The position numbers were made by a program, and so were the translations under genes. The notes under the pieces are model-generated. The model searched no databases and was not told the origin of the DNA. It worked only from the letters and a program-made list of their open reading frames with translations. Positions 1 through 16,771 of a DNA stretch of 16,771 bases are shown in pieces; the stretch's first letter is position 1; each line of letters begins with the position of its first letter. Origin of the DNA: a virus (lineage: Duplodnaviria > Heunggongvirae > Uroviricota > Caudoviricetes); IMG/VR virus record IMGVR_UViG_2698536372_000015, positions 1 to 16,771 of that record; one strand, given 5' to 3'.

Positions 1-66
1 GATACAGGCAGTGTGCTGTTCAATTGCCTCGATCATCTCTTCACGGGTGACTAATGACGTTCTCAT
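1..66 (-). CDS. 5'-partial CDS of unknown function (N-terminus only; continues beyond window start)
   Basis: ATG at 66-64 on the minus strand preceded by a strong Shine-Dalgarno (AGGAGGG); reads MRTSLVTREEMIEAIEQHTACI and runs off the window. The ATG overlaps the TGA stop of the upstream ORF 63..455 as ATGA. Confidence 0.35.
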   Translation of the reverse strand, partial: MRTSLVTREEMIEAIEQHTACI

Positions 67-455
67 AGTCCCTCCTGAGCAGAAGCGTTAACAGGGAGGC
101 ACCAGTAACTGAGAGAATTGCGTGAATCAGTGGAAAAACGGGCAGAGAAAATACAGGGAGCATCCGGAAGCTGAGAACGTGCCTCATCTTCTGTCGGTGC
201 AATAACGAAGTGATAGTGGCGTTTCTGGCAGGAGTAAAAGCGCCAGATAAATTCAGGGCGTGCGCAAGGATTGGCATTAACCATAGTTACGGCCTCATTC
301 GTAGGTTTAACAACCTGCGACCCGCTGTCAAACAGGTGGCAGGACGTGACAGGGTTGACAGACTGGCACGAATGAAACCAGCAGGCCGAAGCCTCCCCAT
401 CACGCCCCACCATAATTCGGGCGTAACGCGGTTTACGGACACAAAAATACCGCAA
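63..455 (-). CDS. hypothetical protein; start uncertain (TTG at 455, or ATG at 284 with a GAGG SD)
   Basis: Open frame whose TGA stop overlaps the start of the next minus-strand gene (ATGA), and whose 3' end encodes that gene's SD. No recognisable motif; composition not strongly protein-like. Confidence 0.3.
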   Translation of the reverse strand: MRYFCVRKPRYARIMVGRDGEASACWFHSCQSVNPVTSCHLFDSGSQVVKPTNEAVTMVNANPCARPEFIWRFYSCQKRHYHFVIAPTEDEARSQLPDAPCIFSARFSTDSRNSLSYWCLPVNASAQEGL

Positions 456-585
456 TATCGGAAATCTGCGGTTGTCCGCATTCGTATTCAGGCTGTCAAA
501 CCTGGTCGCAGAATTTGCTACGACGGTGGAACTATAAGCCTGAACGACGATGAGATCAATAGAGCCGTGTTCGATGGTAGGTTAT

Positions 586-616
586 TTGCTCTAATAAATC
601 AAATTTATTAGAGCAA
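586..616. promoter_or_regulatory. perfect 14-bp inverted repeat (TTGCTCTAATAAAT / ATTTATTAGAGCAA, 3-bp spacer); candidate phage late-promoter or activator site
   Basis: Read directly from the sequence. Each arm matches the motif at 1561-1580. No flanking T-tract, so unlikely to be an intrinsic terminator. Confidence 0.4.
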
Positions 617-627
617 TAATGGTTAAA

Positions 628-879
628 TCATCTTCGCCTGCGTGCCATATATTTGCGCACCGCGCGGCGTGGACAATCTGAAGCGGTTTCTTTCTGCTGC
701 ATCAATCTCGCAGCCATGCTCAAAAAAGTCAGGCACAGCCGAAGCCCGGCATACAATAGCGGTTCCAGTGGCCACGTCTCATTGAGCACATATACCGCCA
801 TGAAAATCGAGTCGAAAACTATCGCCGCCAGCGATAACTTCATTGTCGAAAGTCGGCGGAGCTGCCGGAGTTTATTCAT
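628..879 (-). CDS. small hypothetical membrane protein, translationally coupled to the endolysin gene
   Basis: ATG at 879-877 overlaps the end of the endolysin gene (ATGAATAA). The 83-aa product has a hydrophobic segment (LSLAAIVFDSIFMAVYVL) and a basic C-terminus. No family recognised. Confidence 0.3.
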   Translation of the reverse strand: MNKLRQLRRLSTMKLSLAAIVFDSIFMAVYVLNETWPLEPLLYAGLRLCLTFLSMAARLMQQKETASDCPRRAVRKYMARRRR

Positions 880-1429
880 TGACCAGTCCCGTCAGGCAAA
901 GCTGGCGTTCTTTTTCACGGCGAATCTTTAAACCTCGCAGGGGCACGCCGTTACTGTTCACGAAATCAGGGAGATGGTTACACATATTCACCCATTCCCC
1001 TTTCTGCGCCCACTTGTGGATGGACGTTTCTACTCGCATGCCTCGCGCTTTGCTGTAGTAGGTCCGTAAGCTATTGCATCCCATATTGAATGCCGCGCTT
1101 GTCATTGCACTGAAGGCATTATCGGGCATGTCTTTGCCCCGGAAGTGCTGATTAATACAGCGTTCAGCGATCAGGATATTCTTTTCCCAATCAGCGGCGA
1201 TTTGCTGGTCGGTTTTTCGCACACCCGGCGTTACCCCGTGTGTATTACCGATCCCGTCAGTCCATACCCCCGCAGGGCACATGTATGGATCACGTCGGCA
1301 ACCTTCAGCGTTACCAATCAGCTCAAGCCCCGCCTGGTTGGTTCGCACATTGCCATTACCCATCACGATGGTAATCATCACCGCGATAGCGCAAATTGCA
1401 CCGCCTCCTGCGGCTGTTTTTCCCTTCAT
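872..1429 (-). CDS. lyz: SAR (signal-anchor-release) endolysin, glycoside hydrolase family 24 lysozyme, P1 Lyz-like
   Basis: 185-aa product from the ATG at 1429 (GAGG SD 7 nt upstream). N-terminal Gly/Ala-rich weakly hydrophobic SAR segment (TAAGGGAICAIAVMITIVMG) with Cys13, then Glu42, Cys44 and Cys51 in EGCRRDPYMCPAG, then lysozyme core motifs (GVWTDGIGNTHGV, REKERQLCLTGL). This layout matches what I recall of phage P1 Lyz. The longer ORF-track start at 1528 is rejected. Confidence 0.92.
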   Translation of the reverse strand: MKGKTAAGGGAICAIAVMITIVMGNGNVRTNQAGLELIGNAEGCRRDPYMCPAGVWTDGIGNTHGVTPGVRKTDQQIAADWEKNILIAERCINQHFRGKDMPDNAFSAMTSAAFNMGCNSLRTYYSKARGMRVETSIHKWAQKGEWVNMCNHLPDFVNSNGVPLRGLKIRREKERQLCLTGLVNE

Positions 1430-1560
1430 AAAGACCTCATAAGCGAATTTTTTACGCTCCAGGACAAACACCCATTCACAGCCAATACCGACTGACTCGA
1501 TCCCTTTAGAAGGCACAGGATAATGCAAATCACTTGTTAGCTACGTTTCAAAGATATACA

Positions 1561-1580
1561 TTATTGCTCTAATTAATTTG
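1561..1580. promoter_or_regulatory. third copy of the TTGCTCTAAT[A/T]AAT motif in the lyz-ssb divergent intergenic region; candidate late-promoter element
   Basis: TTATTGCTCTAATTAATTTG matches the reverse complement of 601-620 (19 of 20 positions). Lies between the divergent lyz and ssb starts. Direction of action not determinable from sequence alone. Confidence 0.35.
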
Positions 1581-1598
1581 TTTTATTGGGTAAGAAAA

Positions 1599-2087
1599 GT
1601 GGCACAACGCGGTGTAAACAAAGTCATCCTGATTGGTACCCTGGGGCAAGACCCGGAGATCAGGTATATACCAAATGGCGTCGCGGTCGGAAGACTCAGC
1701 ATCGCAACGAATGAATCATGGCGCGACAAGCAAACGGGCCAACAGAAAGAGCAAACAGAATGGCATAAAGTCGTTTTGTTCGGAAAACTTGCTGAAATTG
1801 CGAGTGAGTATTTACGAAAAGGTTCTCAGGTCTACATCGAAGGGAAACTTAAAACCCGTAAGTGGACAGATGACGCCGGTGTAGAACGTTACACGACGGA
1901 AATTATCGTCAGCCAGGGCGGCACCATGCAAATGATCGGCGCTCGTCGCGACGATTCACAGTCCACAAATGGCTGGGGGCAATCAAACCAACCTCAAAAC
2001 CACCAGCAATACAGCGGTGGTAGCAAACCTCAGAGCAGCGCCAATAACGAACCTCCAATGGACTTTGAAGACGATATTCCGTTTTAG
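1599..2087 (+). CDS. ssb: single-stranded DNA-binding protein (SSB)
   Basis: OB-fold SSB sequence closely resembling E. coli SSB ([50 protein letters not shown]), Gly/Gln-rich linker and the canonical acidic tail [11 protein letters not shown]. Likely GTG start at 1599; the ORF-track start at 1578 is a TTG inside the upstream motif. Confidence 0.93.
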
Positions 2088-2092
2088 AGTTT

Positions 2093-2275
2093 ATGAGTAA
2101 AAAACGACTGAAAGAAAAGCGGTGGTCCAAACGCCAACAAAAGCACGAACTCGCTAAAAAACGCCAAAGTTGGCAATGGAACGCGTTTTTAACGAACAGA
2201 ACACCCCGAGATATTGCTTTCGCTGGTGGGAAAACATTCCTGACCCACCTGAAGGCGCAATACATCAGTTTTTAA
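2093..2275 (+). CDS. possible small basic (Lys/Arg-rich) protein; may be a spurious ORF
   Basis: ATG 6 nt after the ssb stop; 60 aa, highly basic N-terminus (MSKKRLKEKRWSKRQQKHELAKKRQ). Overlaps the long-start version of the next ORF; weak SD. Confidence 0.2.
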   Translation: MSKKRLKEKRWSKRQQKHELAKKRQSWQWNAFLTNRTPRDIAFAGGKTFLTHLKAQYISF

Positions 2276-2289
2276 GCAGAGAAAAGACT

Positions 2290-3078
2290 ATGGCAGCACA
2301 AAATACTAAAACAATTCAATACCGCCTGCGTAATGGCCAGAGTGTCGAAGTGACCATCAATAATGATGGTGTACCTGGCGAAAAGGTTTCTATCTCCGAT
2401 CTGGCTATCGAAAAAACCATCATGTGCCACCTTGGCTTTACTGAAGAAGTGAGCAAAAAGCATGGTGTAGCAATCTGGAGCGCAATGGATACTGGTATGC
2501 GCAAATTCATTACTGCTCGTACCCCAGGGATGACCATGATGGACCTCATGCAGATTGCGCCGCTGTTTGAATGTGAGCCTTTAGATGTATTCAGCAATCC
2601 AGCTATCTGCCAGCAGTTATATGGTGAGGTGAAACTCGCGGTTACCCCCATTGTGCTGCATGAAGGATCGCTTGCTGGCGTGTGGAAAGTGGAGCGTATT
2701 TCAAGCTACATGCCTTTCCATGTCAACGGCGTAATCACTGGTGAAAATCAACCTGTTTCCGTTATAAAGTCAGACCTCAAGCGCGCAATTCTTGAAGCAA
2801 GTTGTCGAGTTATCGGCCTAGGCAAACAGTCTTATGTTTCCTTCCCGGCTGGCCCTGAAGGCCCGGCAGAAATTCTGATTATGGATGCCGATCTGCTCTG
2901 GCAAATACAGTTTCTAATTGGCAAAAGCATCATCCGAGCTGAAGAGCTCGATCAGTACATTACCTGCACGATGACGGATGAAGTCAAAAGTGTGGCTATA
3001 GCCAATGCCAGGAACCTATGTCGTGCTACATTGGCAGAACCGCAAGAAAACATTCCAGAAGAAACAGAAAGTGACTAA
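2290..3078 (+). CDS. hypothetical protein (262 aa from ATG 2290; alternative longer start at 2170 gives 302 aa)
   Basis: Long open frame with protein-like composition directly downstream of ssb; no motif recognised. Start choice is uncertain. Confidence 0.6.
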   Translation: MAAQNTKTIQYRLRNGQSVEVTINNDGVPGEKVSISDLAIEKTIMCHLGFTEEVSKKHGVAIWSAMDTGMRKFITARTPGMTMMDLMQIAPLFECEPLDVFSNPAICQQLYGEVKLAVTPIVLHEGSLAGVWKVERISSYMPFHVNGVITGENQPVSVIKSDLKRAILEASCRVIGLGKQSYVSFPAGPEGPAEILIMDADLLWQIQFLIGKSIIRAEELDQYITCTMTDEVKSVAIANARNLCRATLAEPQENIPEETESD

Positions 3079-3275
3079 TAAAAACCCCGTCAGTTGGCGG
3101 GGAACTCCACGTTAAATGACCAATTATTATGTTAGCTAGCAGTTAAAGCGCCTAGTCATTATCTCTTAAAGAAGTCTTTTTAACTTATCTAAATTAGTGA
3201 CACCTCCCGTTTTGCTTGCTATGGTATGCATTCATAAACCTATTCATTAATCTATTCACAACAGTAATTAAAACT

Positions 3276-4580
3276 ATGGCTACACATGCAACAACAATCC
3301 GTAGCTTGCTCAATCAAGGGCCTATGACACCAAGACAATTGGTTGAAAAACTCAGTGTTAGCCAACCAACGATATCTAGAGCATTAAGAGAACTTGGTGA
3401 TGAAATCGTTAGGATCGGAAATGGAAGATCTATTCAATATGCTTTACGAGACTCTTTTAGAGGATTCGAATCAGTCCCCATTTATCGTATAACTGAAGAG
3501 GGGTGTATTTGCGTTCTTGGTACTCTCATTCCGGTGAGGCCAGAAGGCTATGTTATGGTTGAGGATGGGAAAAATAACAGGCATAGCGATGGGTTACCTT
3601 GGTGGTTATTTGATATGCGTCCACAAGGCTTCCTTGGAAGAGCATATGCATCAGCATATGCTCTTGAACTTAACCTTCCCTCAAATCCAGAGCAATGGTC
3701 AGATACTGATGTGATCAAAGCCTTACTTAAGCATGGGCATGATGTTGTTGGTAATTTGTTAATTGGAGAGCAAGCGCGCACGCATTTTTTAGAGATGCAG
3801 CCTCCTGTTCCTGTTAATCGTGAAATTGAATATCCTGTATTAGCTTTAGCCGCTGGTGAAGGTGATGTGCCAGGTTCATCTGCTGGAGGTGAACAACCCA
3901 AATTTTGTACTTTCACAGAGCGTGGACATGTATTAGTGAAATTCTCTGCGCCTAACGACACCCCTATAAGTGAGCGCTGGAGAGATCTCTTGTTTGCTGA
4001 ACATCTCGCATTAAAAGTTCTGGGGGTAGAAACAGAAGTTTTTGATTATAACGGTCAGAGATTCTTGGAAATTCCCCGATTTGATCGTGTTGGTCAACTC
4101 GGTCGGGTAGGTGTATTCTCACTTCGTGCACTTGATGCAGAATTTGTTGGTAATGCAAGAGCAACATGGCCCTTGCTGGTTAAAGAGTTGGTAAAAAATA
4201 AGTGCGTCCATCCTGATGCGATTATTATAGCAACAAGGCTATGGTCTTTTGGTGTGCTAATAGGCAATACCGATATGCATAATGGCAACCTATCGTTTAT
4301 TAGTAGCCACGGACGCCCATATCATATTGCTCCAGCCTATGACATGTTACCTATGGGTTTTGCCCCACGCTCTGGGGGAGCAATGTCTAATGAGCTTAGA
4401 AAAACAGCACTACCAGACTTTGTAAGTCGAAAAATATGGGATGAATCTCTTGAATTAGCTGAAAAATTTTATGCATTGGCCTGTGAGGCCGACAAATTCT
4501 CAGCTAACTTTACTCCATGTTTAGAAGCACTACGCATCCACCTAGATGATTGTAAAATACGCATAGCCCGCCTGGCATAA
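3276..4580 (+). CDS. HipA-like Ser/Thr kinase with N-terminal helix-turn-helix domain (YjjJ/HipH-like architecture)
   Basis: N-terminal HTH (MTPRQLVEKLSVSQPTISRALRELG). HipA-type motifs: P-loop-like SSAGGEQPKF, catalytic GNTDMHNGNLSF, Mg-binding APAYDMLPMGF. Visibly more AT-rich than flanking genes. Start taken at ATG 3276 (MATHATT...) rather than the ORF-track 3216. Confidence 0.85.
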   Translation: MATHATTIRSLLNQGPMTPRQLVEKLSVSQPTISRALRELGDEIVRIGNGRSIQYALRDSFRGFESVPIYRITEEGCICVLGTLIPVRPEGYVMVEDGKNNRHSDGLPWWLFDMRPQGFLGRAYASAYALELNLPSNPEQWSDTDVIKALLKHGHDVVGNLLIGEQARTHFLEMQPPVPVNREIEYPVLALAAGEGDVPGSSAGGEQPKFCTFTERGHVLVKFSAPNDTPISERWRDLLFAEHLALKVLGVETEVFDYNGQRFLEIPRFDRVGQLGRVGVFSLRALDAEFVGNARATWPLLVKELVKNKCVHPDAIIIATRLWSFGVLIGNTDMHNGNLSFISSHGRPYHIAPAYDMLPMGFAPRSGGAMSNELRKTALPDFVSRKIWDESLELAEKFYALACEADKFSANFTPCLEALRIHLDDCKIRIARLA

Positions 4581-4583
4581 ACA

Positions 4584-4611
4584 AGAAATCCCGCCAATCG
4601 GCGGGATTTCT
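4584..4611. terminator. bidirectional hairpin terminator between convergent genes
   Basis: Perfect 12-bp stem AGAAATCCCGCC / GGCGGGATTTCT with 4-nt loop, 4 nt after the kinase stop and abutting the stop of the minus-strand acidic gene. Confidence 0.6.
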
Positions 4612-4920
4612 TCAATATACGATCTGGTCTACATGATCACCAAAATCATCGTCGTCGTCCTCATCGCCACCCTCTACTGCTGGCCAATCAACAAACCAGC
4701 CAGCGTAAAGATGCAGCGTTCGGAGAACATCACTTGCGGGAGCATCAAGGGTGTTAACGAATCCCATATAGCTATTGGGATTTGCCCCAGCTATGGCTTC
4801 AGCGATCATGTCCTCGGTAATGTCACCGGAGATAATGCTTAAACGCCCGGAAACTTCTTCATTATCATCAAATTCGATAATGGCATCTCCGCCTAATGGC
4901 GCTGCGATTTTAATCTGCAT
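4612..4920 (-). CDS. small highly acidic protein, translationally coupled downstream of the large minus-strand gene
   Basis: ATG at 4920 lies 8 nt upstream of the large gene's stop, with a strong SD (AAGGAG) inside that gene's 3' end. 102 aa, very acidic, C-terminal DEDDDDDFGD run. Confidence 0.6.
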   Translation of the reverse strand: MQIKIAAPLGGDAIIEFDDNEEVSGRLSIISGDITEDMIAEAIAGANPNSYMGFVNTLDAPASDVLRTLHLYAGWFVDWPAVEGGDEDDDDDFGDHVDQIVY

Positions 4921-7897
4921 TATTTAGCTCCTTTGCCACACCTAATAACAGTTCCAGCAATCCGTCACCATTCATCAGTGATGCGGCAGCGGCCTCTTTA
5001 TCATGATACAACTGAAGAGCCATAGAGAATACTTCCGTTGCTGACGTTTTGGAAATAGTCGGTGATTTCTGCCGAATTTTCCCGGTGTTACTTACTGAGG
5101 CTGGCGGGTATACCTTCGCCATATAAATATTACTCAATCGAGATCTGAAGCACCATTCAGGCTTGCCACGCCCACCGATATTGACGAAAGATGGCTTATC
5201 CCCTTCAACATTGGCCTTCAGGAATGACCGGGCTTTCTCTAACAAACCAGGGTTACTGTACTCAAGATGATGACCCAGCTCGTGCCACAGTGCGCTCGCA
5301 TTTTCATCGTTCAAATTGACAGCAACAACACCATTTAGATTTGCATATGCCCTTCCCTGGTGGTGAACTACCTTTGATAAGGTCGATATTTTCCCGCCGG
5401 TCAGGCGATAAATATCAGCAAGTTCCTTGCGCAGGTCTATCCCACCATTCTGTCCAGCGCGGGCTTCTTCCACTTCTTCTGTGATAAAAGAGTCGGCCCA
5501 CTCAAGAGCTTTTTCTTCAGATACGGATGAGTTTGCGATCGCACTGTTCATGGCAGATAACACTTTCTCGTGGACCGAACCCATACTTCGCTGATTCATT
5601 TGCCAGCGTGTCTGCGGGTTATATGAGAATCGCTTAAGTAGTTGGTCAAGCTGCTCAAGTTCTTCTTCACTGACATACTTTTTAGCCTCACCAATAATGC
5701 CAGGGAGAATATTGCCGTTAGGATTAAACGCTCGCGAAAGGAAGAGTTTCAGCGCCCCCATGCCCTCCGATGCTTCAATATCACCAATAACCCGGTTAAC
5801 AATGGCCGCACTCTTCGGATTAGCATCCGCCAACGCTCTGGCTACGATTTGCAGGGACGATACGACCTCACGCTGCATATCAGTCCTGATCTCATCAATA
5901 AACTCTGGCGTTATGCCGTGCTCTTTAAGGATATCCCGGCCTTCCGCCGTTACCCCATCGATATCACCGACATGTTTATTAACACGACTTTGCAATGCCT
6001 TAAATGCCTTCAGAATTCCACGGGCATCATCCGCTTTACTAACGGCCTTCCTGAATGCTGGCAAGAAGTCTGAGTTAACCTCATTTTGTTGATCGGCCCA
6101 CTGAATGGAGGCTTCCTTCATCTCGTCCAGAGTCAGATCACCCAACGCGGTATGGTCTGTGAATATGAGCGATAACCTCTGAACCATTTCTGCCAATGGT
6201 GATGCCGAATGCGCCGCGCTAAGGAATGCTTTCACCCTGGTTGGGCGAATGGAAAACCAGTCAATAGCTGGTGGCATATCTCCGTTTTTTATCGCCTGCG
6301 CTATCTCGTCAAAGCCATCGCGCCCAAGGGAGGATGCGTGATTTAACAAGCCGCGAAGTAACGAATTGCTGATACCGAATAATCGGCACCATTTTTTCAC
6401 GTCGGCAACAGGCATTCGAACAAAATGCGCAAGCACTTGAACAAGCTGTTCATCCTGGGGATCTGTACGGGAAAGCAGCCTGATCAGATGAATAATGTCT
6501 TTGATGCCGGATGCCCGATGTAATAGCAAGCTGGTATATGGAGCAACACCGTTGTAACTACCGCCAGAAGCTGACTCGAAAAGACCGCCAGATATCCCTT
6601 GCATACCTTCGTTTTCCAGTTCCTGAGATACCTGGCGAAGGATATCCTGTAACGACACATCGCCGCCGCCAAACATATCCCCGAGCGCCTGGCCCTGGTG
6701 CTGTAACTCATCATTGATACGTTGCGCCATCAACTTAAAGGCGGTGGCCATACGCTTCGCGCTACGGTTATTCGCGACGATGAACAACGCGAGTGCTTTC
6801 ACTTCCGGGGCCATTTCGCTGAACATATCCCCCTGAGCAATAACATCGGTAATATGCTGGCCTGACTCCTTCGATTGCCTTACCAGGTCTACCGCATCTT
6901 TCAATGCCGCCAGCGCCTTTTTATCGAGGCTATCCGCTGTCTCAATGCCATCAACAATAGTTGTCACAGCCTGCTTGTGCGCTTCTCCTGATAAAGCCTG
7001 CATCTGGACAAAATCATTGGCTGCCGCATTAAGCGCCGTCAGAACATTACGCATATCCGGATCAGGTTCTTCTGCAACCATCCTTACCAGGCGCGCATCC
7101 TTATATGCCTTGGCAAAGATCGCGTTTTGTATACGGTCTACAAGTTGCCGTGTTGGTCGCCCATCTTCAGTTACAAGGCCAGCCGCCTGTGTGGCACCAA
7201 CTTGCGTCATAAATCCGCGAATAAACGCGTCATTACTGCGGCTAAGCAGATCTCCGCTTTCTGACGGATTAAACAGCGCCATCATCGCCGGTGTTATGCT
7301 GTCGGCATCAACAAAAGCCTTTTCACTGGCTGCCATTTCCTGAAGATCAGAAATATTTGAGTCCTTGGCAAACTGAACGCGGTCAACCTTCGTTAACCGG
7401 CGGCGCACCAGTACCGGAGCCGTCATTGATTCAACCTTTTCAGTACGTATGCCGAATTCGGTCGCATGTTCAATCAGGTACTCCCGATACCGATCCGCAT
7501 TACCGTCCTGATAGGCTTTAATGATCCCCATGGTACGTCCATTACCTGACTCAACTGCATTGTCCTCACCAATTATCGGTGCGCCATGGCTGGATAATCC
7601 GGAATCGGTAAGCTGAGCAGGCCGCAAATCTTTGGATATCTGGTTAACCTGAAGAAGGCTGGATGCGCGGGTCCGGTCGCGCGGCTGAAGTTCCTGGGGA
7701 TAGTCAGGATTAATTTTCCCATCCAGAGTATTGGATACCAAAATAGCTGAGGCATCGACGATATCAAACGCTGTTTTTACCTCGTCTCCCTTCGCTGTCA
7801 CCACATACGAAACCCGCCCATAATCGGGCAGGTTCTTTAGCAGCTCGATCAGCGTTTCTATGCTGGTGGCCATTACCACCTGATCGCTTAAGCTCAT
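4910..7897 (-). CDS. large (995 aa) phage protein with an HExxH zinc-metallopeptidase-like motif; possibly an internal virion or antirestriction-type protein (position suggests P1 DdrB, unverified)
   Basis: Uninterrupted 2988-nt frame with protein-like composition. HELGHH encoded at 5284..5267 near the C-terminus. No other motif recognised; the DdrB assignment is from recalled P1 gene order only. Confidence 0.85.
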   Translation of the reverse strand: MSLSDQVVMATSIETLIELLKNLPDYGRVSYVVTAKGDEVKTAFDIVDASAILVSNTLDGKINPDYPQELQPRDRTRASSLLQVNQISKDLRPAQLTDSGLSSHGAPIIGEDNAVESGNGRTMGIIKAYQDGNADRYREYLIEHATEFGIRTEKVESMTAPVLVRRRLTKVDRVQFAKDSNISDLQEMAASEKAFVDADSITPAMMALFNPSESGDLLSRSNDAFIRGFMTQVGATQAAGLVTEDGRPTRQLVDRIQNAIFAKAYKDARLVRMVAEEPDPDMRNVLTALNAAANDFVQMQALSGEAHKQAVTTIVDGIETADSLDKKALAALKDAVDLVRQSKESGQHITDVIAQGDMFSEMAPEVKALALFIVANNRSAKRMATAFKLMAQRINDELQHQGQALGDMFGGGDVSLQDILRQVSQELENEGMQGISGGLFESASGGSYNGVAPYTSLLLHRASGIKDIIHLIRLLSRTDPQDEQLVQVLAHFVRMPVADVKKWCRLFGISNSLLRGLLNHASSLGRDGFDEIAQAIKNGDMPPAIDWFSIRPTRVKAFLSAAHSASPLAEMVQRLSLIFTDHTALGDLTLDEMKEASIQWADQQNEVNSDFLPAFRKAVSKADDARGILKAFKALQSRVNKHVGDIDGVTAEGRDILKEHGITPEFIDEIRTDMQREVVSSLQIVARALADANPKSAAIVNRVIGDIEASEGMGALKLFLSRAFNPNGNILPGIIGEAKKYVSEEELEQLDQLLKRFSYNPQTRWQMNQRSMGSVHEKVLSAMNSAIANSSVSEEKALEWADSFITEEVEEARAGQNGGIDLRKELADIYRLTGGKISTLSKVVHHQGRAYANLNGVVAVNLNDENASALWHELGHHLEYSNPGLLEKARSFLKANVEGDKPSFVNIGGRGKPEWCFRSRLSNIYMAKVYPPASVSNTGKIRQKSPTISKTSATEVFSMALQLYHDKEAAAASLMNGDGLLELLLGVAKELNNAD

Positions 7898-7996
7898 CCC
7901 TGTTACGCCTTATCCAATGTGCCGCCCCCTACGCTCCTCATAGTGGGGATATAAGGCACAGTTTTCCTCCCGGCTATTTTTGCTTAAAATAGTGAC

Positions 7997-9943
7997 ATGA
8001 AACAACAGGTGTCATTCAAATTCCGGTTAAAACCAGATGGTCAACAGGAGCGTCAAATGAGGCGCTTTGCCGGAGCTTGTCGTTTCGTTTTCAACCGTGC
8101 TCTGGCGCTTCAGAATGAGAATCATGAGGCCGGTAAAAAATACATCCCTTACACGAAAATGGCTTCCTGGTTGGTTGAGTGGAAAAAAGACACTGAAACC
8201 GAATGGCTTAAAGATTCTCCCTCACAGCCATTGCAACAGTCACTGAAAGACCTTGAGCGGGCTTACAAAAACTTCTTCCAGAATCGGGCAGCTTTTCCCC
8301 GATTCAAAAAGCGGGGACAGAATGATGCATTCCGCTACCCGCAGGGTGTTAAGCTCGATCAGGAGAACAGCCGTATTTTTCTGCCGAAACTGGGCTGGAT
8401 GCGCTACCGGAATAGCCGTCAGGTCACGGGTGTTGTGAAAAATGTCACTGTCAGCCAGTCCTGCGGTAAGTGGTACATCAGTATTCAGACAGAAAGAGAG
8501 GTATCCACTCCTGTTCACCCTTCTGCATCAATGGTCGGACTGGATGCTGGTGTGGCTAAACTCGCCACGCTGTCAGATGGCACAGTCTTTGAACCTGTAA
8601 ATAGTTTTCAGAAAAACCAGAAGAAGCTGGCGAGACTTCAGCGACAGTTAAGCCGCAAGGTCAAATTCAGCAACAACTGGCAGAAGCAGAAACGCAAAAT
8701 ACAGCGACTGCATTCCCGTATCGCAAATATCCGCAGGGACTACCTTCATAAAGTCACAACGACCGTCAGCAAAAACCACGCAATGATAGTCATTGAGGAT
8801 TTGAAGGTCAGCAACATGTCAAAGTCAGCAGCGGGTACGGTCAGCCAGCCGGGGCGCAATGTCCGGGCAAAATCAGGTTTAAACCGTTCGATACTGGATC
8901 AGGGCTGGTATGAAATGCGCCGCCAGCTTGAGTACAAGCAGCTCTGGCGTGGCGGTCAGGTGCTTGCTGTTCCGCCAGCGTACACAAGCCAGCGTTGCGC
9001 GTGCTGTGGTCATACAGCGAANNNNNNNGCTTTTCCCCGATTCAAAAAGCGGGGACAGAATGATGCATTCCGCTACCCGCAGGGTGTTAAGCTCGATCAG
9101 GAGAACAGCCGTATTTTTCTGCCGAAACTGGGCTGGATGCGCTACCGGAATAGCCGTCAGGTCACGGGTGTTGTGAAAAATGTCACTGTCAGCCAGTCCT
9201 GCGGTAAGTGGTACATCAGTATTCAGACAGAAAGAGAGGTATCCACTCCTGTTCACCCTTCTGCATCAATGGTCGGACTGGATGCTGGTGTGGCTAAACT
9301 CGCCACGCTGTCAGATGGCACAGTCTTTGAACCTGTAAATAGTTTTCAGAAAAACCAGAAGAAGCTGGCGAGACTTCAGCGACAGTTAAGCCGCAAGGTC
9401 AAATTCAGCAACAACTGGCAGAAGCAGAAACGCAAAATACAGCGACTGCATTTTCGTATCGCAAATATCCGCAGAGACTACCTTCATAAAGTCACAACGA
9501 TCATCAGCAAAAACCACGCAATGATTGTCATTGAGGATTTGAAGGTTAAAAACATGGCAAAGTCAGCAGCGGGTACGGTCAGCCAGCCGGGGCGCAATGT
9601 CTGGACAAAATCAGGTTTAAACCGTTCGATACTGGATCAGGGCTGGTATGAAATGCGCCGCCAGCTTGAGTATAAGCAGCTCTGGCATGGCGGTCAGGTA
9701 CTGGCAGTGCCGCCAGCGTACACAAGCCAGCGTTGCGCGTGCTGTGGTCATACCGCGAAAGAAAATCGCCTGTCACAAAGTAAATTCAGATGCCAGGTAT
9801 GTGGATATACAGCGAACGCCGATGTAAACGGCGCTCGTAACATTTTAGCGGCGGGGCACGCCGTTCTTGCCTGTGGAGGGATGGTGCAGTCAGGCCGCCC
9901 GTTGAAGCAGGAACCAACCGAAATGATTCAGGCGATAGCCTGA
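7997..9943 (+). CDS. tnpB: IS605-family TnpB (OrfB) RNA-guided nuclease; assembled ORF artefactually lengthened by an in-frame 738-nt duplication across a 7-N gap (true length about 402 aa)
   Basis: RuvC-I GLDAG, RuvC-II VIEDL, zinc finger CACCGH...CQVCGY, Ruv[14 protein letters not shown]. Blocks 8291-9021 and 9029-9759 are near-identical and separated by NNNNNNN; the offset is 738 nt, so the frame is kept and the translation shows XXX. Confidence 0.85.
8291..9021. repeat. first copy of duplicated 731-bp tnpB segment, ending at the assembly gap
   Basis: Identical to 9029-9452 over the first 424 bp, then roughly 15-20 substitutions by eye up to the gap. Confidence 0.8.
9029..9759. repeat. 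second copy of duplicated tnpB segment, contiguous with the tnpB 3' end
   Basis: Begins immediately after the N run at 9022-9028 and continues into the C-terminal zinc-finger region. Confidence 0.8.
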
Positions 9944-10004
9944 ACGTAGCAGGAATCCACGCCCGTCAGGGTGCGGAGGATGTCAAAAGGCAGGTGAGGT
10001 TATA

Positions 10005-10136
10005 ATGAGAAAACTATTACTACCGTTATTATTTATGGCCGGGACTGTTAATGCAGCATCAAGCGTGAAGGAGATTTGTACCGATTATACGAAATACCTT
10101 GGGCACGTTTACGCCTTTGCGATCAATGACTATTAA
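10005..10136 (+). CDS. small exported peptide (43 aa, predicted signal peptide)
   Basis: ATG with a good SD (GGTGAGG); N-terminal signal-peptide-like MRKLLLPLLFMAGTVNA; mature part about 26 aa with one Cys. Below the ORF-track length cut-off; found by reading. Confidence 0.4.
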   Translation: MRKLLLPLLFMAGTVNAASSVKEICTDYTKYLGHVYAFAINDY

Positions 10137-10157
10137 TCCATGCGTAGGAGTGGATTT

Positions 10158-10475
10158 ATGCTGATTCGTTTGTTTTTAGTGCTTTCCTTTTTAACATTTA
10201 ATGTTTTTGCTGATGAAGTTGACTTTTCGAAGGTAGATTGCAATTCAGTGGAAACAAGAAAAGCTCTTATTGAAGAATATAACGAAATATTATCGTCATA
10301 TGGAATAACAGTGGTTGATTCTTATAATCAAAAAACTATTCAGAAAGGAATAAATAAACTGGTTTGTTATGGGGTTTACCAATATTCAGATGGCTCTTCG
10401 GAGTATGTTATTTATAAAGCATACCCAAATAGTCTTGGTGAATTGATTAGTGAGTTTAAACCGATTAATGAGTGA
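10158..10475 (+). CDS. small exported protein (105 aa, cleavable signal peptide, two Cys)
   Basis: ATG at 10158 with SD AGGAG. Signal peptide MLIRLFLVLSFLTFNVFA followed by an acidic mature start. Very AT-rich coding sequence. Confidence 0.6.
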   Translation: MLIRLFLVLSFLTFNVFADEVDFSKVDCNSVETRKALIEEYNEILSSYGITVVDSYNQKTIQKGINKLVCYGVYQYSDGSSEYVIYKAYPNSLGELISEFKPINE

Positions 10476-10482
10476 ATGGAAA

Positions 10483-11262
10483 ATGAAATTATTTAATGTA
10501 ATAACATTTTGTTGTGCTATTTTTGCTGGAAGCGCGATAGCTGATAATAAATTGCCAGATTGGCTTTCTACTTCAAAAAAAGATTATGATTTAGTAAGGG
10601 TGTTCTATTTGTCTGGATTTGCCTCGAAAGCAATGAATAATCAATTTGGTTATCATTTTCCATCTGAGTTGGTTAATGATTTTAAAGATAATGAATTTGC
10701 CGCTCAGGAAAAATGGAATAAAATTTCAATTGTATATGGTGAAATAAAATCCATAAGAATGGTGAATAATGAACCAATTGTAGAGTTATTTACTCCAGGG
10801 GAAAATGCAACGCCACTAAATTATATCAAATTGAAAGTGTTGGATTCAAAACAAAACTCTCTGTTAAAACTAAAAAAAGGGGATGATATATATGCAGTGT
10901 GCTCCGGTGCTAATTTTAGTTTAGTGCCAATTCTGAGCAACTGCACTCCAGCAACTGACGTCATTGATGCTGCACTCTCTTTTTCTGGTGAATATATGTT
11001 CCCTGCTTTTGATTCTTTTTCACCTACTAAGCAAAACGTCAAATATATATTCACAAATCAAGATCCTGTTCAGATGATGAATTTTATAGGGTACCTATCC
11101 TTAGTCGATACAACGAAGGATAAGAATAAAATGGATATGGTTCGTAAGTGTACGCCTTGGAAGCCGGAATGTTCACAACAATTCGTTGATGTAATGGAAG
11201 GATTTGATAACATCATGTATAAATATGAGAGGGAATTTAAAAATTACATAGAATTAAAATAG
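10483..11262 (+). CDS. exported protein (259 aa, signal peptide, several Cys), unknown function
   Basis: ATG at 10483 is 8 nt after the upstream stop. Signal peptide MKLFNVITFCCAIFAGSAIA with a likely signal peptidase I site (no clear lipobox). Very AT-rich. Confidence 0.65.
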   Translation: MKLFNVITFCCAIFAGSAIADNKLPDWLSTSKKDYDLVRVFYLSGFASKAMNNQFGYHFPSELVNDFKDNEFAAQEKWNKISIVYGEIKSIRMVNNEPIVELFTPGENATPLNYIKLKVLDSKQNSLLKLKKGDDIYAVCSGANFSLVPILSNCTPATDVIDAALSFSGEYMFPAFDSFSPTKQNVKYIFTNQDPVQMMNFIGYLSLVDTTKDKNKMDMVRKCTPWKPECSQQFVDVMEGFDNIMYKYEREFKNYIELK

Positions 11263-11294
11263 TATTTGAAATGATAGTCAATTTAAGTTTTAAC

Positions 11295-11326
11295 AAAACG
11301 CCCATTAAAGGGCGTTTTATTGTTTT
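11295..11326 (+). terminator. rho-independent terminator of the exported-protein operon
   Basis: Stem AAAACGCCC / GGGCGTTTT with loop ATTAAA, followed by a T-rich run (ATTGTTTT). Confidence 0.7.
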
Positions 11327-11430
11327 ACTCAAAACAATCTGATTATGTGATAACCATATCATATTCCTCATTCCACCTACACTGATTACCCCCCAGACAA
11401 CAACATTCCTACTCAATGAACAAATGACTA

Positions 11431-12038
<608 letters not shown>

Positions 12039-12048
12039 GGGGGCTGAT

Positions 12049-12660
12049 ATGGGGCTTAATGTTGCTTCAGTAAAGTCTTATGTATCTTCGGCATTAACGA
12101 CGACATTATTTGGCTCCGGCGTTGGTGAGCGGGAAGTTGGTAAGCTGACGTCAATCATCATGAACAAAATGCTGTTCGCGCAAGGATGGCAGTTCTCTGT
12201 CGAAGTTGATGGTCTGGAGGGGGCAGACTTCTTTGCCAAAGACATTACCTACCACGATTACAGCATCGAATATGAAACGATTAAAATAGGCGGAGGGAAT
12301 ATCCTTCAGCCAACGGAGCGTTCGCCTGGGCAGATAACAATGATGGTCAGGGATACCGTTGATGGCCTCGTTTTGGACTGGTTTAAGACGGCAAAAGGTC
12401 GGGTGATCAATCCGGACGGTACCGGGAATATACCGTCTAAATATTTGCTCAATGTGCGTATTTATCGGTTGCTGTCCTCCGGTTTAACCAAACTGGAAAA
12501 TGAGATGACGGTATTCCCGGTCACTACCGGCGATGTCACCTATGCGCGGGATCAGGTTACGGAATTTAAGTCATTCCCAATGACCTTCGCATTGCACAGC
12601 ACGTTTAACCAATCCTCAAGTTCTTTAGCTTCCCTTCTGGGCTTTAGTTTTTCTCTTTGA
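12049..12660 (+). CDS. hypothetical phage structural protein, 203 aa
   Basis: SD GAGGGGG 7 nt upstream; starts 10 nt after the previous stop. No motif recognised. Confidence 0.7.
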   Translation: MGLNVASVKSYVSSALTTTLFGSGVGEREVGKLTSIIMNKMLFAQGWQFSVEVDGLEGADFFAKDITYHDYSIEYETIKIGGGNILQPTERSPGQITMMVRDTVDGLVLDWFKTAKGRVINPDGTGNIPSKYLLNVRIYRLLSSGLTKLENEMTVFPVTTGDVTYARDQVTEFKSFPMTFALHSTFNQSSSSLASLLGFSFSL

Positions 12661-12674
12661 ATTAAGGAGCAAGG

Positions 12675-13556
12675 ATGCTTTTACCTCTTTTCCCGCTACC
12701 ATCGCGGCCAACTGAATTGATCCAGTTCCGTCAGCCAAATATTGCTGATGCGATGCGTTTCAACTCGATAACACCGGAGGAACAAGAACAACAGACAACG
12801 GCGTATTTAAAAGCCTTGCTGGCTGAACCCGCGAAATATGATCCCCTGACATGGACGGCGCAGGACCGGATTACCGCGTTATGGTGGATATTTACTGGCT
12901 CCCGTGAAACACCGGTCGAGACATTCACCTACACCTGTAAACATTGCGGTAAAGAGCATTATTACGATTGCGATATGAATGCTCTGGCTGAAGATATCCA
13001 GGTCCTGGAAGTGGAACCGTTCATTGACGATATTGAGGTGTCTGTAGAGGGCGTGCCTTATCAATGGCGTATCGTGCCGCTTGATGGTTGGGCAATGGAA
13101 ATGCTGGAGATGCGCCGTGCAGCATTGCCACCTGAAGACGACGCGGAATTCAAAGAAGCGATCGTTGATTTGCGTTTTTGGGAATTCGCTTATCAGTGTG
13201 AACTTTATAACGATGTTAGCGGTACTCGTGAAGAGCAGGCTGAGCGTCGTTATGAAACGATCAAACGGATGGCCATTGATACTGAATTTATGAAGCTGGC
13301 GGCACACATCCGACTGGCTCATGAAAAGCTCGAACATGGTTTACCGTGCTACATCGATAAAGGCGAAATGCGTCTTCGTCTCCCGCCGCACAAATGCCCA
13401 AACCAGGATAAAAAGGAGTCCACAGAGGGTGCGTATACCCGTCTGTGGGTGCCCTTTCGGGCTACCGACTTCATTCCACAGGTGGGGATTGAAAAGCTAT
13501 CAGACCTTAGTGTCCAACCTGGTTTTGTATGGGGGTATACCGATTCAGGACGCTGA
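12675..13556 (+). CDS. hypothetical phage structural or assembly protein with Cys cluster (possible zinc ribbon), 293 aa
   Basis: SD AAGGAG. Cys cluster CKHCGKEHYYDCD plus distal Cys residues. Position directly before the tape-measure-like gene. Confidence 0.7.
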   Translation: MLLPLFPLPSRPTELIQFRQPNIADAMRFNSITPEEQEQQTTAYLKALLAEPAKYDPLTWTAQDRITALWWIFTGSRETPVETFTYTCKHCGKEHYYDCDMNALAEDIQVLEVEPFIDDIEVSVEGVPYQWRIVPLDGWAMEMLEMRRAALPPEDDAEFKEAIVDLRFWEFAYQCELYNDVSGTREEQAERRYETIKRMAIDTEFMKLAAHIRLAHEKLEHGLPCYIDKGEMRLRLPPHKCPNQDKKESTEGAYTRLWVPFRATDFIPQVGIEKLSDLSVQPGFVWGYTDSGR

Positions 13557-13637
13557 AAGGCTCACTGAATCCTATGCGTTTTTCCTGTTGGAGAAACTGG
13601 AAGAAAAACTTAAACCGAAGCGGTAGGCGATAAGATC

Positions 13638-16600
13638 ATGGAAAGAAAAAACGCCAACATTGACGATGTGATAAGGACGGTTGAAACCGCCAGCGCAAAA
13701 GAGCTGGAAGAGCTTGCAGGTATTCGGGAAGCTGTTGAAGATTTGAAAGGGGGGCGAGTTGCTACTGTTGATCCTGTCTCTCGCAGCGTGTCGGCATTAA
13801 ATCGCACAATCGAAAATTCCCGGCCTGACTTTGTGGCCAAAGCGCCATCCGTAGACCCTATTGTTGACGCAATGAAACGGCTTAATTTAGGGGACGTTTC
13901 TCGTGTAGTTCAGGAAGATGTTGCTCAACAGGAACAGCGGGCCAAATCAACCACACAAAAGGGTAAAAAACGACGCAGGAAGGCTATACCAGAGGATGTA
14001 AAGGCACAACGGACCGAAGCAGCCGAACACGCTCGCGAAATGTTCGGTCAAAAAGGCGGTGCGCAAAAAAGCCAAAACCAACGCGATGCGCGTGGTCGTT
14101 TTATTGGAAAGTCAGGGAGTAAGGCCGCAGCGGAAGATGCCCGTGCTGAACGAGCAGAAAAGGCCAGGCGAAAAGAGGATGATGAGCGTCTAAATGCTGA
14201 ATCAGGTTTATTAAAAAAACTGTCAAAAGTAGCTGAAGGCATAGGTAACCCTTCAGAGACTCGTGCCGTCGATGCGTTAGGTTACGCCGTTGCTGGTCCA
14301 TTGTGGGCAGCAGGGAAGGAGCTTGGCGGGATATCAAAAGAAGTTGGTGGATCGCTTAATGGTGCCAGAAAGTCTATTGCCGATGTGATTCGTGGCAATG
14401 ACGATAACAGCCGTAGAAAAGGTTTTTTTAGGCGTAAATCGCAAAATAGTGCCGATGTCGTTCAGGTTAACACCCAAAAACGGACGGTTCAGGAACTTCA
14501 GGAGCAGACCAGCGAAATTAAAGAGGGCAATGACAAGATTCTCCGTGCCCTTGATCAGATAGCCAAAAACACCGGTAAAAAGAAGGGCGGCTTGCTGTCC
14601 AAACTATTTAGCCTGTTAGGGAAGGGGGCCGGTGGCGTCGCGTCGTTGTTAATGGGGCGTGGCATGCTGAAAAAAGCTGGAGCACTCGCTTTTGGCGCTC
14701 TGGGGGCAAAGAAACTTGTAGGAATGCTACGCGGTGGTGGCAAGAAGACTCTCGCTCATGAAGGCGGAGATTTGGCTGCCCGGGCAGCAGGTAAACTTGG
14801 ATTAAAGGCAGTTGGTAAAGGGGCGTTACGCGCAATTCCCCTAGTCGGCACAGTGGCTGGAGGTATTTATGGTGCGGTAACCGGTTGGAATGATACAGAA
14901 GCGCAACGTCGAGCGTTTGGGCTTAAATCAGGACAAGATCCATCATTCCAGCAAAAAGCCGCTTATACGTTAGCTAATGTTCTTGATATGGGGGGACTGG
15001 TATCTGGTATTAGCAGCGCCATTGGTGAGGTTCTCAAATCACTTGGATTTGAGGATATCGGCAATATGTTGCAATCATTTTCGACGGAAAGTATTGCCCA
15101 GGCCATTGATAGTGGGATTACCAACTTAGAAACATATATTTCTAATCTTGGCGACACCATTTCTACCAAGTTCGATGATTATACAGCAAAGATTGGTGAT
15201 GCTATTTCTGCATGGTTCAGTGACACCACAAAGAATCTGAACGAAAAATTAGACGCCATCAAAAACTTCTTTACTGTCGATAACCTGAAACAGGTTTTCA
15301 GTGATGCAATTGATAGTGCAATTGATTTCATTAAGAATCCTGGGAAATACATTAAAGAGGCTGGCAGTAATCTATGGAGTGCCGCAAAAGAGCTTTCAGG
15401 TGAGGTTGCAGATGCCGCTGTTCAGAGCACCCCTGTGGCCTGGGTTGCATCAAAGCTAGTCAACAAAGCGGATGCGAAAGAGGTTACACCTGAATTAAAA
15501 ACACCAGCTAAAGAAAGTCAGGAGGACAATGCTCCTAAGACTGAATATACCCCTAAAAAGGCTAATATTGTCACTCGTGTTGTAAATGCATCCCTAGATA
15601 CGGCGAAAGATAGCAATAAAACAGTTAAAGAAACTGCCAATCAGATTATCAATGCAAATGCCGTAGAAACGGGCAATCGCGCGTTGCAGAAAATTGATAA
15701 TGCTATTGGTCAAAATAGCTCATCATCATCGTCGCTTAATACTACTGGCACCAGGAATGACATTCAGAAAGCTGCGGATACCTACAACAATGGCAACTTA
15801 GATGTAAAAGTCGGAAGCCTTGGCGCTGAAGGTAAGGCAAATCTCGATAAGTTGGCTCCGTATTTTGCTGAACTAGAGAATAAATATGGCCTTCCTGAAG
15901 GTACTCTTTACGCGATCGCTGCAACTGAATCTGGTGGTGATCCTAACGCAAAATCTACGCTTACAAGATCACCAAATGGAAAGCTAAGTGGTGGCGCTCT
16001 CGGAATGTTCCAGTTTACGAGCGTTGCTCGTGAGGAAACTGGATTATCCCGGGAAGATTCTTTTAATCCGGAAAAATCGGCAGAAGCTGCGGCTCTTCTC
16101 ATGAGCAAGTATCTGAAGCAAGCCAATGGAGACTTAAACGAGGCCATCACTGCATATAACGCTGGGTTTGGCACTATCAATAAGTGGAAAAAAGGCACAG
16201 GTGACTTATCGAAAGAAAACCGTGAGTACGCGATCAAGGTCAATACTCATCGTGCTCGCTATTTAGGTGGTGAAATCTATACACCTGGAGCAGGAGCACA
16301 GGGTGGGGCGCAATATGGAGTGAGGGGACCACTGCCTGATAACGCTGTTATCGATCAGTCTACTGGCCTGGCGTTTACCCCTGGTGATAGCCCGTTTGAG
16401 AAAGGTGGTCTGGTAGACAAAATTGGCAATGCTGTTGGCGTTAACGATCTGGTCAACAAATTCATGAATGGCCGGGGTATGCGTCGGGAAGTCGTTCAGG
16501 GAACGCTCGAAGAACGTGCACGAGGGAAGGGGACCGCAACAGCAGCTGGCAATGTGTATGTTGATACTCCGATGCCAGTTGAAGAGGCACGTCCGGTGGC

Positions 16601-16771
16601 CAACAACTCAAGTTACTTTGACCAGCTCGGCGCACAAATGGGGATTGATGGACTGTATGACAAACTCATTAATGCCCGGGGAATGCGCTCAAATAATTCT
16701 CCTCAACCAGCCTCCACGTCCCAGGTGACGACTGCCGCCAACGATTTGCAGCAACCAACCGGTCGTATGCA
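13638..16771 (+). CDS. 3'-partial tape-measure-like structural protein with lytic transglycosylase (SLT) domain, P1 Sit-like; continues beyond window end
   Basis: Frame open from ATG 13638 to the window end (over 1040 codons). Basic and coiled N-terminal region, Gly-rich hydrophobic segment (GKGAGGVASLLMGRGMLKKAGALAFGALGAKKLVG), and SLT motifs AIAATESGG (Glu codon 15927-15929), GALGMFQF and AYNAGFG. Confidence 0.88.
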   Translation, partial: MERKNANIDDVIRTVETASAKELEELAGIREAVEDLKGGRVATVDPVSRSVSALNRTIENSRPDFVAKAPSVDPIVDAMKRLNLGDVSRVVQEDVAQQEQRAKSTTQKGKKRRRKAIPEDVKAQRTEAAEHAREMFGQKGGAQKSQNQRDARGRFIGKSGSKAAAEDARAERAEKARRKEDDERLNAESGLLKKLSKVAEGIGNPSETRAVDALGYAVAGPLWAAGKELGGISKEVGGSLNGARKSIADVIRGNDDNSRRKGFFRRKSQNSADVVQVNTQKRTVQELQEQTSEIKEGNDKILRALDQIAKNTGKKKGGLLSKLFSLLGKGAGGVASLLMGRGMLKKAGALAFGALGAKKLVGMLRGGGKKTLAHEGGDLAARAAGKLGLKAVGKGALRAIPLVGTVAGGIYGAVTGWNDTEAQRRAFGLKSGQDPSFQQKAAYTLANVLDMGGLVSGISSAIGEVLKSLGFEDIGNMLQSFSTESIAQAIDSGITNLETYISNLGDTISTKFDDYTAKIGDAISAWFSDTTKNLNEKLDAIKNFFTVDNLKQVFSDAIDSAIDFIKNPGKYIKEAGSNLWSAAKELSGEVADAAVQSTPVAWVASKLVNKADAKEVTPELKTPAKESQEDNAPKTEYTPKKANIVTRVVNASLDTAKDSNKTVKETANQIINANAVETGNRALQKIDNAIGQNSSSSSSLNTTGTRNDIQKAADTYNNGNLDVKVGSLGAEGKANLDKLAPYFAELENKYGLPEGTLYAIAATESGGDPNAKSTLTRSPNGKLSGGALGMFQFTSVAREETGLSREDSFNPEKSAEAAALLMSKYLKQANGDLNEAITAYNAGFGTINKWKKGTGDLSKENREYAIKVNTHRARYLGGEIYTPGAGAQGGAQYGVRGPLPDNAVIDQSTGLAFTPGDSPFEKGGLVDKIGNAVGVNDLVNKFMNGRGMRREVVQGTLEERARGKGTATAAGNVYVDTPMPVEEARPVANNSSYFDQLGAQMGIDGLYDKLINARGMRSNNSPQPASTSQVTTAANDLQQPTGRM

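Follow-up and report, generated by a model that had tools for sequence, protein, structure and literature searches.

Positions 9800-10010 of the viral record IMGVR_UViG_2698536372_000015 (Caudoviricetes), the 16,771 nucleotides (nt) of which are together called the window, are identified by sequence comparison as the right end (RE) of the known E. coli insertion sequence (IS) IS609, in the form of a derivative of approximately 1.34 kb that lacks tnpA and belongs to the IS200/IS605 family. Taken as a whole, it is highly probable that this right end carries an omega RNA, a guide RNA of TnpB, and lies in the simA leader of phage P1, that the 648-amino acid (aa) open reading frame (ORF) running into it is an artefact, and that the sim block behind it is native. 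This analysis establishes where the element ends, its target motif, the conserved fold and the catalytic residues, whereas the mechanism is drawn from ISDra2 and other characterised TnpB systems. The window contains pieces of two IS609 copies, copy A at the ddrB/ddrA site and copy B at the sim site, and their features are listed in Table 1. Both the IS, which is already catalogued, and the type of replicon that hosts it are known, and insertions of IS609 with the cleavage sites TTAT/TCAA were reported earlier for the P1-like plasmids pJIE250-3 and pSvP1 (PMC6906374).

The right end is mapped between positions 9986 and 9987, with the terminus ...GGATGTCAA, by comparison with the empty sites of IS-free plasmids, in which homology to the window extends up to 7913 on the left side and starts again from 9987 on the right side. 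By a representative search and a scan that covered one genome for each species, 80 relatives were obtained (a plain homologous-protein search gave only near-identical E. coli InsQ proteins, which are of no use for covariation). At 56-84% aa identity, 74 of the 80 end with ...GAGGATGTCAA and diverge directly after GTCAA. The right end is fixed at 9986 because it is given both by the alignments of the IS-free plasmids and by the common terminus of these 74 relatives. It is located 43 nt past the tnpB stop codon and 18 nt ahead of the ATG at 10005. An initial annotation, made from the sequence alone, had placed the right end somewhere in the approximately 60 nt between this stop (9943) and this ATG and had proposed to map the ends and the target motif by comparison with other copies; this comparison yields the exact boundary and the motif TTAT.

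The ddrB/ddrA empty site of pAUSMDU00014361_02 reads ...ctgttacgccTTAT followed by GCTGCC, namely TTAT/GCTGCC, and the sim empty site of the same plasmid reads ...ctaaatgagTTAT followed by AAGGCAGGTGAGG, namely TTAT/AAGGCAGG. The empty and filled sim sites (GAGTTAT/AAGGCAGG versus GAGTTAT/IS/AAGGCAGG) differ without any target-site duplication. The simA insertion junction is shared with only one catalogued PLSDB plasmid, Salmonella Agona NZ_CP071390.1, in which the right junction is as in the window, the left junction is GAGTTAT/CCGGTGCGCC, and the IS of 1336 bp is again inserted without target duplication. TTAT flanks the element at four independent sites, including the sim site, K-12 IS609 and pJIE250-3, and the target motif, or transposon-associated motif (TAM), is on these flanks identified as TTAT. 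The left end (LE) of copy A is also present in pMBT-5, and its ddrB-side flank is matched in many E. coli records. Subterminal imperfect hairpins are present at the LE of the Salmonella plasmid copy, of K-12 IS609 and of the window. The element thus shows a fixed tetranucleotide 5' of the insertion, no target-site duplication and no terminal inverted repeats, as expected of the IS200/IS605 family.

Two variants of these junctions are observed in related plasmids. The sim-site IS609 of pCREC447-2 (7960-9330 of the retrieved locus) also has the left flank GAGTTAT, and its right flank begins with AATGAGAAAAC. This plasmid is thus without the 17 nt AAGGCAGGTGAGGTTAT (9987-10003 of the window), a stretch that ends in a second TTAT, and its predicted guide is altered; the loss would fit recombination between IS copies at two neighbouring TTATs. 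The ddrB-site copy has the right end GGATGTCAC instead of GGATGTCAA (18237-18248 of the pMBT-5 locus; about 9338-9349 of the pM121-2 locus), with a terminal TCAC where the family has TCAA, and with a perfect right-end hairpin with CGAA or TTCG loops.

The element is 94.0% identical over 1236 nt to K-12 IS609 (mobile element annotated at 1503161-1504908). In the last 71 nt the right-end terminus differs from that of K-12 IS609 at nine positions and keeps GGAGGATGTCAA; the core motif of the LE is likewise related. With a length of 1335-1336 bp, as compared to 1748 bp for K-12 IS609, the element has no room for tnpA, only 83 nt being present between the LE start (7914) and the tnpB ATG (7997). 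The assignment as IS609 without tnpA follows from the identity and ends shared with K-12 IS609, from the TTAT and TCAA sites and from the absence of the tnpA segment. Because no Y1 (HUH) TnpA is encoded, the element is regarded as a non-autonomous tnpB-only derivative, which is a known state in the IS200/IS605 family (IS1341-type group). IS609 DNA is detected in about 5000 of 5426 E. coli genomes (approximately 93% of the complete ones), at a median of two places per genome.

The initial annotation had proposed that the guide RNA derives from the 3' end of tnpB and the right end, and a conserved fold is found there at 9845-9986. In an alignment of 53 sequences that covers the 165 nt preceding the right end, compensatory changes are detected by RNAalifold in 19 of 24 pairs. 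A hand-refined structure of 38 pairs is 91.2% paired over the 53 sequences, as compared to 38-48% in slid controls. Its double-change cells number 275, as compared to 37-74 in the slid controls, and its covariation score is 0.402, as compared to at most 0.104; none of 500 shuffles reaches the observed values. A covariance model constructed from 42 relatives, among which neither the window nor any copy from E. coli or Salmonella was included, matches the fold over its full length with 134.5 bits (E 5.4e-38) and has no other match in the window. A search of this kind had been suggested by the initial annotation, and its outcome is positive. The scaffold overlaps the last approximately 100 nt of tnpB; two of the four stems lie inside the coding region and one encloses the stop codon. 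The tnpB part of 9800-10010 encodes the C-terminus with the second CxxC pair and the RuvC-III Asp. The right-end hairpin, which is the last stem of the guide RNA (helix 7), is 95.4% paired, with compensatory changes at six of nine pairs, and by analogy may also be the hairpin that TnpA recognises in single-stranded DNA.

Some variation of the scaffold is observed among the relatives. Approximately a dozen of them contain one or more extra nested hairpins, for example CCGCC...GGCGG, in the loop of the right-end hairpin, representing a variable expansion of the last stem. In 15 listed relatives, the tnpB ORF extends to 17 nt before the right end, which places its TAG stop within the right-end hairpin loop, whereas the stop of the window and of most others is part of the 3' strand of stem 3. 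A second, different InsQ/TnpB gene of pM121-2 (391 aa; 13038-14253 of the retrieved locus, minus strand), located between lydA and the tail-fibre genes, is matched weakly by the covariance model at its 3' end (26 bits).

At the gathering threshold, Rfam detects in the window only C4-related RNAs, which are located away from the IS right end. Below this threshold, RAGATH-18 (RF03064) is matched at 9870-9913, namely at stem 2, with 28.1 bits (gathering threshold 44.9 bits, E 0.0043), and sot0042 and HgcC are matched over the scaffold (9816-9977 and 9876-9999, respectively) with 14 bits each (gathering thresholds 88 and 50 bits, respectively). These families have a CCUGUGGAG...GAAGCAGGAA motif and a terminal hairpin in common with the scaffold. 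Membership in any of the three is rejected, because all scores are under the gathering thresholds. RNAs of the sot0042 and HgcC families are archaeal and are linked to the 3' ends of IS1341-type tnpB genes. For RAGATH-18, PMC11061315 reports that IS607 TnpB guide RNAs originate from it.

The ORF upstream of the right end (7997-9943, 648 aa) crosses a run of seven N at 9022-9028. A direct repeat of 731 nt flanks this run (8291-9021 versus 9029-9759), with 19 mismatches, all of which are confined to 8715-9016, and with a spacing of 738 nt by which the frame is preserved. The tnpB of IS609, known in E. coli as insQ, is annotated with a length of 1209 nt (402 aa) in all complete replicons that were inspected. 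The left piece of tnpB continues the IS609 copy located between ddrB and ddrA, as in pMBT-5 and many P1-like plasmids, and the right piece continues the copy that, for example in pCREC447-2 and in Salmonella Agona pSE18-SA00377-0-P2, has the immI region (c4-icd-ant) on one side and the sim genes on the other. On these comparisons, the 648-aa ORF is judged to be a chimera of two IS609 copies across an assembly gap and not a natural gene. Alternatively, the ORF might be genuine, with an in-frame tandem duplication of 738 bp that doubles the WED, REC, RuvC-I and RuvC-II regions, and with seven bases that are merely masked. The spacing is indeed divisible by three and the frame is kept, but this has a one-in-three chance of occurring. 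A few over-long InsQ ORFs are found in NCBI records (563, 472 and 452 aa), but the complete replicons inspected all have 402 aa. The N run is located exactly at the repeat junction, and the 19 differences in 731 nt, all in the distal 300 nt, are expected of two IS609 copies and not of a fresh duplication. Furthermore, the left flank is that of the ddrB-site copy and the right flank is that of the sim-site copy, and these sites are 18.6 kb apart in complete plasmids. A genuine duplication is accordingly considered very unlikely. The over-long InsQ-like ORFs, which are 91-95% identical, may be similar repeat or assembly artefacts.

When the two pieces are collapsed (7997-8290 plus 9029-9943), tnpB encodes 402 aa that align end to end with ISDra2 TnpB (8bf8/8exa) with an E value of 1.4e-52. 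Asp183 (GLDAG), Glu267 (IEDL), Asp363 (NADVNGARN) and both CxxC pairs are present, and Pfam PF12323, PF01385 and PF07282 are matched. The HTH/WED-REC-RuvC-zinc finger architecture with the D-E-D triad is thus recognised in the collapsed sequence, whereas each copy in the window is partial. The initial annotation had described an IS605-family TnpB with RuvC and zinc-finger motifs, which is borne out by the ISDra2 alignment and the Pfam matches. It had further described this TnpB as catalytically intact. The motifs are real, because the D-E-D triad and the CxxC pairs are present in the collapsed reading, but intactness of a single copy does not follow from them, because the 648-aa ORF is chimeric across the N gap and both copies are partial.

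Because the junction lies at a repeat, it represents either a mis-join during scaffolding or an inversion isomer generated by recombination between the two copies. In the latter case, the ddrB-IS609-simA adjacency would be genuine, recombination between inverted IS609 copies having flipped the tail/lysis segment of approximately 18.6 kb and left a hybrid IS, and the gap and the duplication would reflect the difficulty of the assembler with the repeat. In pAUSMDU00014361_02, in which neither IS is present, the two insertion sites are 18.6 kb apart; with the orientations that they have in the window, IS copies at these sites would be mutually inverted and have their right ends inward, such that by geometric reasoning recombination between them would yield ddrB-LE...RE-simA. 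However, a ddrB flank joined to a sim flank across one IS is found in no complete E. coli record, scaffolders often mis-join at repeats, and the chromosomal IS609 copies, with their median of two places per genome, add ambiguity. The inversion is a possible but rather unlikely alternative. It concerns the architecture of the window and not the identity of 9800-10010.

Several points weigh against reading 9800-10010 as the source of a working guide RNA. The 5' end of the RNA and the length of the guide are estimates, the 16 nt being taken from ISDra2. The right-end hairpin contains an A.C mismatch at 9959/9974, for which the window stands alone among the 53 sequences, with a C at 9974 that differs from four reference IS609 copies, and this mismatch could weaken recognition by TnpA or TnpB. 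A single-sequence fold of the RNA at 9830-9986 is not better than its shuffles (z -1.27), such that the support for the fold is comparative only. Single-sequence folds of the DNA ends (z -1.58 for LE and -0.87 for RE) are likewise uninformative alone, and a promoter/terminator scan of 7850-10200 gives counts at chance level. No characterisation of IS609 TnpB or its omega RNA was found in the literature searched. Finally, copy B is visible from codon 99 on, and in the actual replicon its upstream part might be incomplete or interrupted. The unique mismatch and the partial view of copy B, together with the lack of tnpA, would also be compatible with a dead relic, namely decaying IS DNA, the TnpB and/or RNA of which no longer functions. 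However, no stop interrupts codons 99-402 of copy B and none of the catalytic or zinc-binding residues is missing, 37 of the 38 scaffold pairs form in the window sequence, and the score of the window under the covariance model equals that of the other E. coli copies. In addition, a 402-aa tnpB is preserved in all inspected complete replicons, and the IS is widespread in E. coli genomes as described above. Decay of this copy into a relic is therefore regarded as unlikely.

Table 1. Features of the IS609 copies, the guide RNA and the flanking genes in the window.
Feature	Positions	Strand	Basis or remark
P1 C4 antisense RNA with a1/b1 targets	332-537	-	Rfam
ddrB, 995-aa ORF with ddrB-ParB domain	4910-7897	-	domain search
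TTAT target/TAM, 5' of the left end of copy A; overlaps the ddrA stop codon (minus strand)	7910-7913	+	empty site
Left end (LE) of copy A, with subterminal imperfect hairpin at about 7925-7948	7914-7996	+	empty-site comparison
tnpB codons 1-341, copy A (ddrB/ddrA site), cut at contig end	7997-9021	+	Pfam HTH_OrfB_IS605, OrfB_IS605
Run of 7 N, probable assembly/scaffold gap joining two different IS609 copies	9022-9028	.	flanking 731-nt repeat
tnpB codons 99-402 and stop, copy B (sim site); RuvC-I D, RuvC-II E, zinc finger, RuvC-III D; TGA stop at 9941-9943	9029-9943	+	ISDra2 TnpB alignment; Pfam OrfB_IS605, Cas12f1-like_TNB
Omega/right-end guide-RNA scaffold, four stems	9845-9986	+	covariance model, covariation
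Stem 1	9847-9853/9859-9865	+	
Stem 2	9870-9874/9907-9911; inner 9878-9880/9898-9900, 9883-9885/9894-9896	+	
Stem 3, enclosing the TGA stop	9918-9919/9952-9953, 9923-9932/9939-9947	+	
Stem 4	9956-9964/9969-9977	+	
Right-end subterminal hairpin, core CCACGCCC-GTCA-GGGTGCGG, last guide-RNA stem	9956-9977	+	covariation
TCAA, last four right-end bases (cleavage site); element end at 9986	9983-9986	+	IS-free alignments, 74 relatives
Predicted guide segment AAGGCAGGTGAGGTTA; P1 simA leader including the simA ribosome-binding site	9987-10002	+	directly 3' of the right end
simA, 43-aa form from internal ATG, signal-peptide-like N-terminus; flanking P1 gene	10005-10136	+	P1 annotation, translation
simB	10140-10475	+	P1 superimmunity gene, NC_005856 identity
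simC ORF	10450-11262	+	P1 superimmunity gene, NC_005856 identity

The genes downstream of the right end had been described in the initial annotation as a foreign exported-protein operon that the IS abuts and may have delivered or mobilised. The region at 9987-13600 (3614 nt) is 98.4% identical to phage P1 NC_005856, in which it is annotated as simA, simB, simC, pmgC, tub and pmgB, followed by sit, and it shows synteny with the P1 sim block next to immI. The operon is thus attributed by sequence to native P1 DNA and not to cargo. All that speaks for delivery of the operon as cargo by this IS609 copy is adjacency, the right end being approximately 18-19 nt from the first ATG of the operon. Against it, the sim-pmgC-tub-pmgB-sit genes are those of P1 itself, IS-free plasmids also contain the sim block in this position, and the insertion is a clean element of 1336 bp between TTAT and TCAA. 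IS200/IS605 elements, moreover, mobilise solely the DNA between LE and RE. The cargo explanation is extremely improbable and is regarded as refuted by the empty-site comparison; the foreign origin assumed for these genes is likewise refuted. Among the records in the databases, 110 cover at least 80% of 9029-16771, and the IS is present in four of the 12 listed. The insertion is located past codon 3 of the long simA annotated in P1 and downstream of the predicted PsimA promoter; the internal simA ATG at 10005 is retained with its own ribosome-binding site, GGTGAGG.

The sequence directly 3' of the right end is predicted to serve as the guide, in agreement with the proposal of the initial annotation that the guide matches sequence just outside the element. 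AAGGCAGGTGAGGTTA occurs once in the window and is identical in P1 and in IS-free plasmids, in which TTAT precedes it. By analogy with ISDra2, TnpB would bind a read-through transcript of the right end, and trimming would leave the scaffold with approximately 16 nt of flank (AAGGCAGGTGAGGTTA). The TnpB-RNA complex would then cut DNA containing TTAT followed by AAGGCAGGTGAGGTTA, namely the IS-free simA site, either at the donor joint that excision leaves or in a P1 genome lacking the IS. Repair by recombination with an IS-bearing copy would restore or spread the element, resulting in its retention or homing. Transposition itself would require Y1 TnpA supplied in trans.

The predicted guide of this copy is the intact simA leader of phage P1. 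Among complete P1-like replicons of E. coli, 213 match the leader at 9987-10030, 149 with an identity of at least 99% across these positions, and none of the 213 has the IS junction; the TTAT ahead of the leader was verified only in P1 and one plasmid. The IS lies in the superimmunity locus, where it separates the sim genes from the predicted PsimA promoter. It is conceivable, although we regard it as quite improbable, that TnpB and its omega RNA could act as an RNA-guided weapon against superinfecting or co-resident IS-free P1-like phages and plasmids. If so, its role would go beyond transposon retention to exclusion, competition or a homing drive between phage-plasmids.

The window is assigned as part of a P1-like phage-plasmid of Enterobacteriaceae, because it contains the C4 RNA and the ddrB domain and is 98-99% identical to P1-like plasmids. 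Positions 1-9021 share 98.8% identity with pMBT-5, the plasmid 'unnamed2' of E. coli MBT-5, and positions 9029-16771 are 96.4% identical to pCREC447-2. An Icd-like ORF (41-277, minus strand) and the C4 RNA with its a1/b1 sites adjoin lyz. This lyz-side C4/Icd pair represents a second immI-like module of the plasmid lineage, besides the one located beside sim in related plasmids. A HipA-family toxin gene (3216-4580, plus strand), called yjjJ in the matching plasmids, is located between ssb and ddrB; other P1-like plasmids contain different DNA at its position, for example ompC.

These results illustrate that a scaffold gap can create a plausible-looking long nuclease ORF that seems intact, and that an IS end next to an operon is no evidence of cargo. 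For the IS609/InsQ clade, the right end is now defined to the nucleotide, the TAM is given as TTAT, and a four-stem guide-RNA model supported by covariation is available. With this model, the TnpB of E. coli itself can be tested directly, as can the question of whether IS609 in P1-like phage-plasmids targets IS-free competitors.

Of the known systems, K-12 IS609 (insQ b1432, with the tnpA pseudogene yncK) and the IS609 insertions of pJIE250-3 and pSvP1 are the closest; in tnpB and the right end, the nucleotide identity is 94-97%. K-12 IS609 has the same LE start (CCGGTGCGCC/CCAATGTGCC), the RE terminus GGAGGATGTCAA, TTAT as the left flank, TCAA as the right site and a 402-aa InsQ. It carries a tnpA segment of approximately 410 bp, however, which the element in the window lacks, and copy A departs from the known IS609 in the sequence of its LE. 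IS608 of Helicobacter pylori, the mechanistic model of IS200/IS605 single-stranded DNA transposition, similarly inserts 3' of a tetranucleotide without duplication and has subterminal imperfect hairpins. Its right end terminates in TCAA, with GAAT just 5' of the right-end hairpin, and GAAT is present at 9953-9956 of the window. IS608 differs in its left target, which is TTAC instead of TTAT, and in the presence of tnpA. ISDra2 TnpB of Deinococcus radiodurans (PDB 8bf8, 8exa, 8h1j) can be aligned from end to end and shares the D-E-D triad and the zinc finger. The ISDra2 RNA is not alignable by eye with the scaffold of the window, and its TAM, TTGAT, differs from TTAT. Nevertheless, in both systems the scaffold overlaps the 3' end of tnpB and stops at the right-end boundary, the guide is provided, or here predicted to be provided, by the flank, and the TAM is the left target motif of the transposon.

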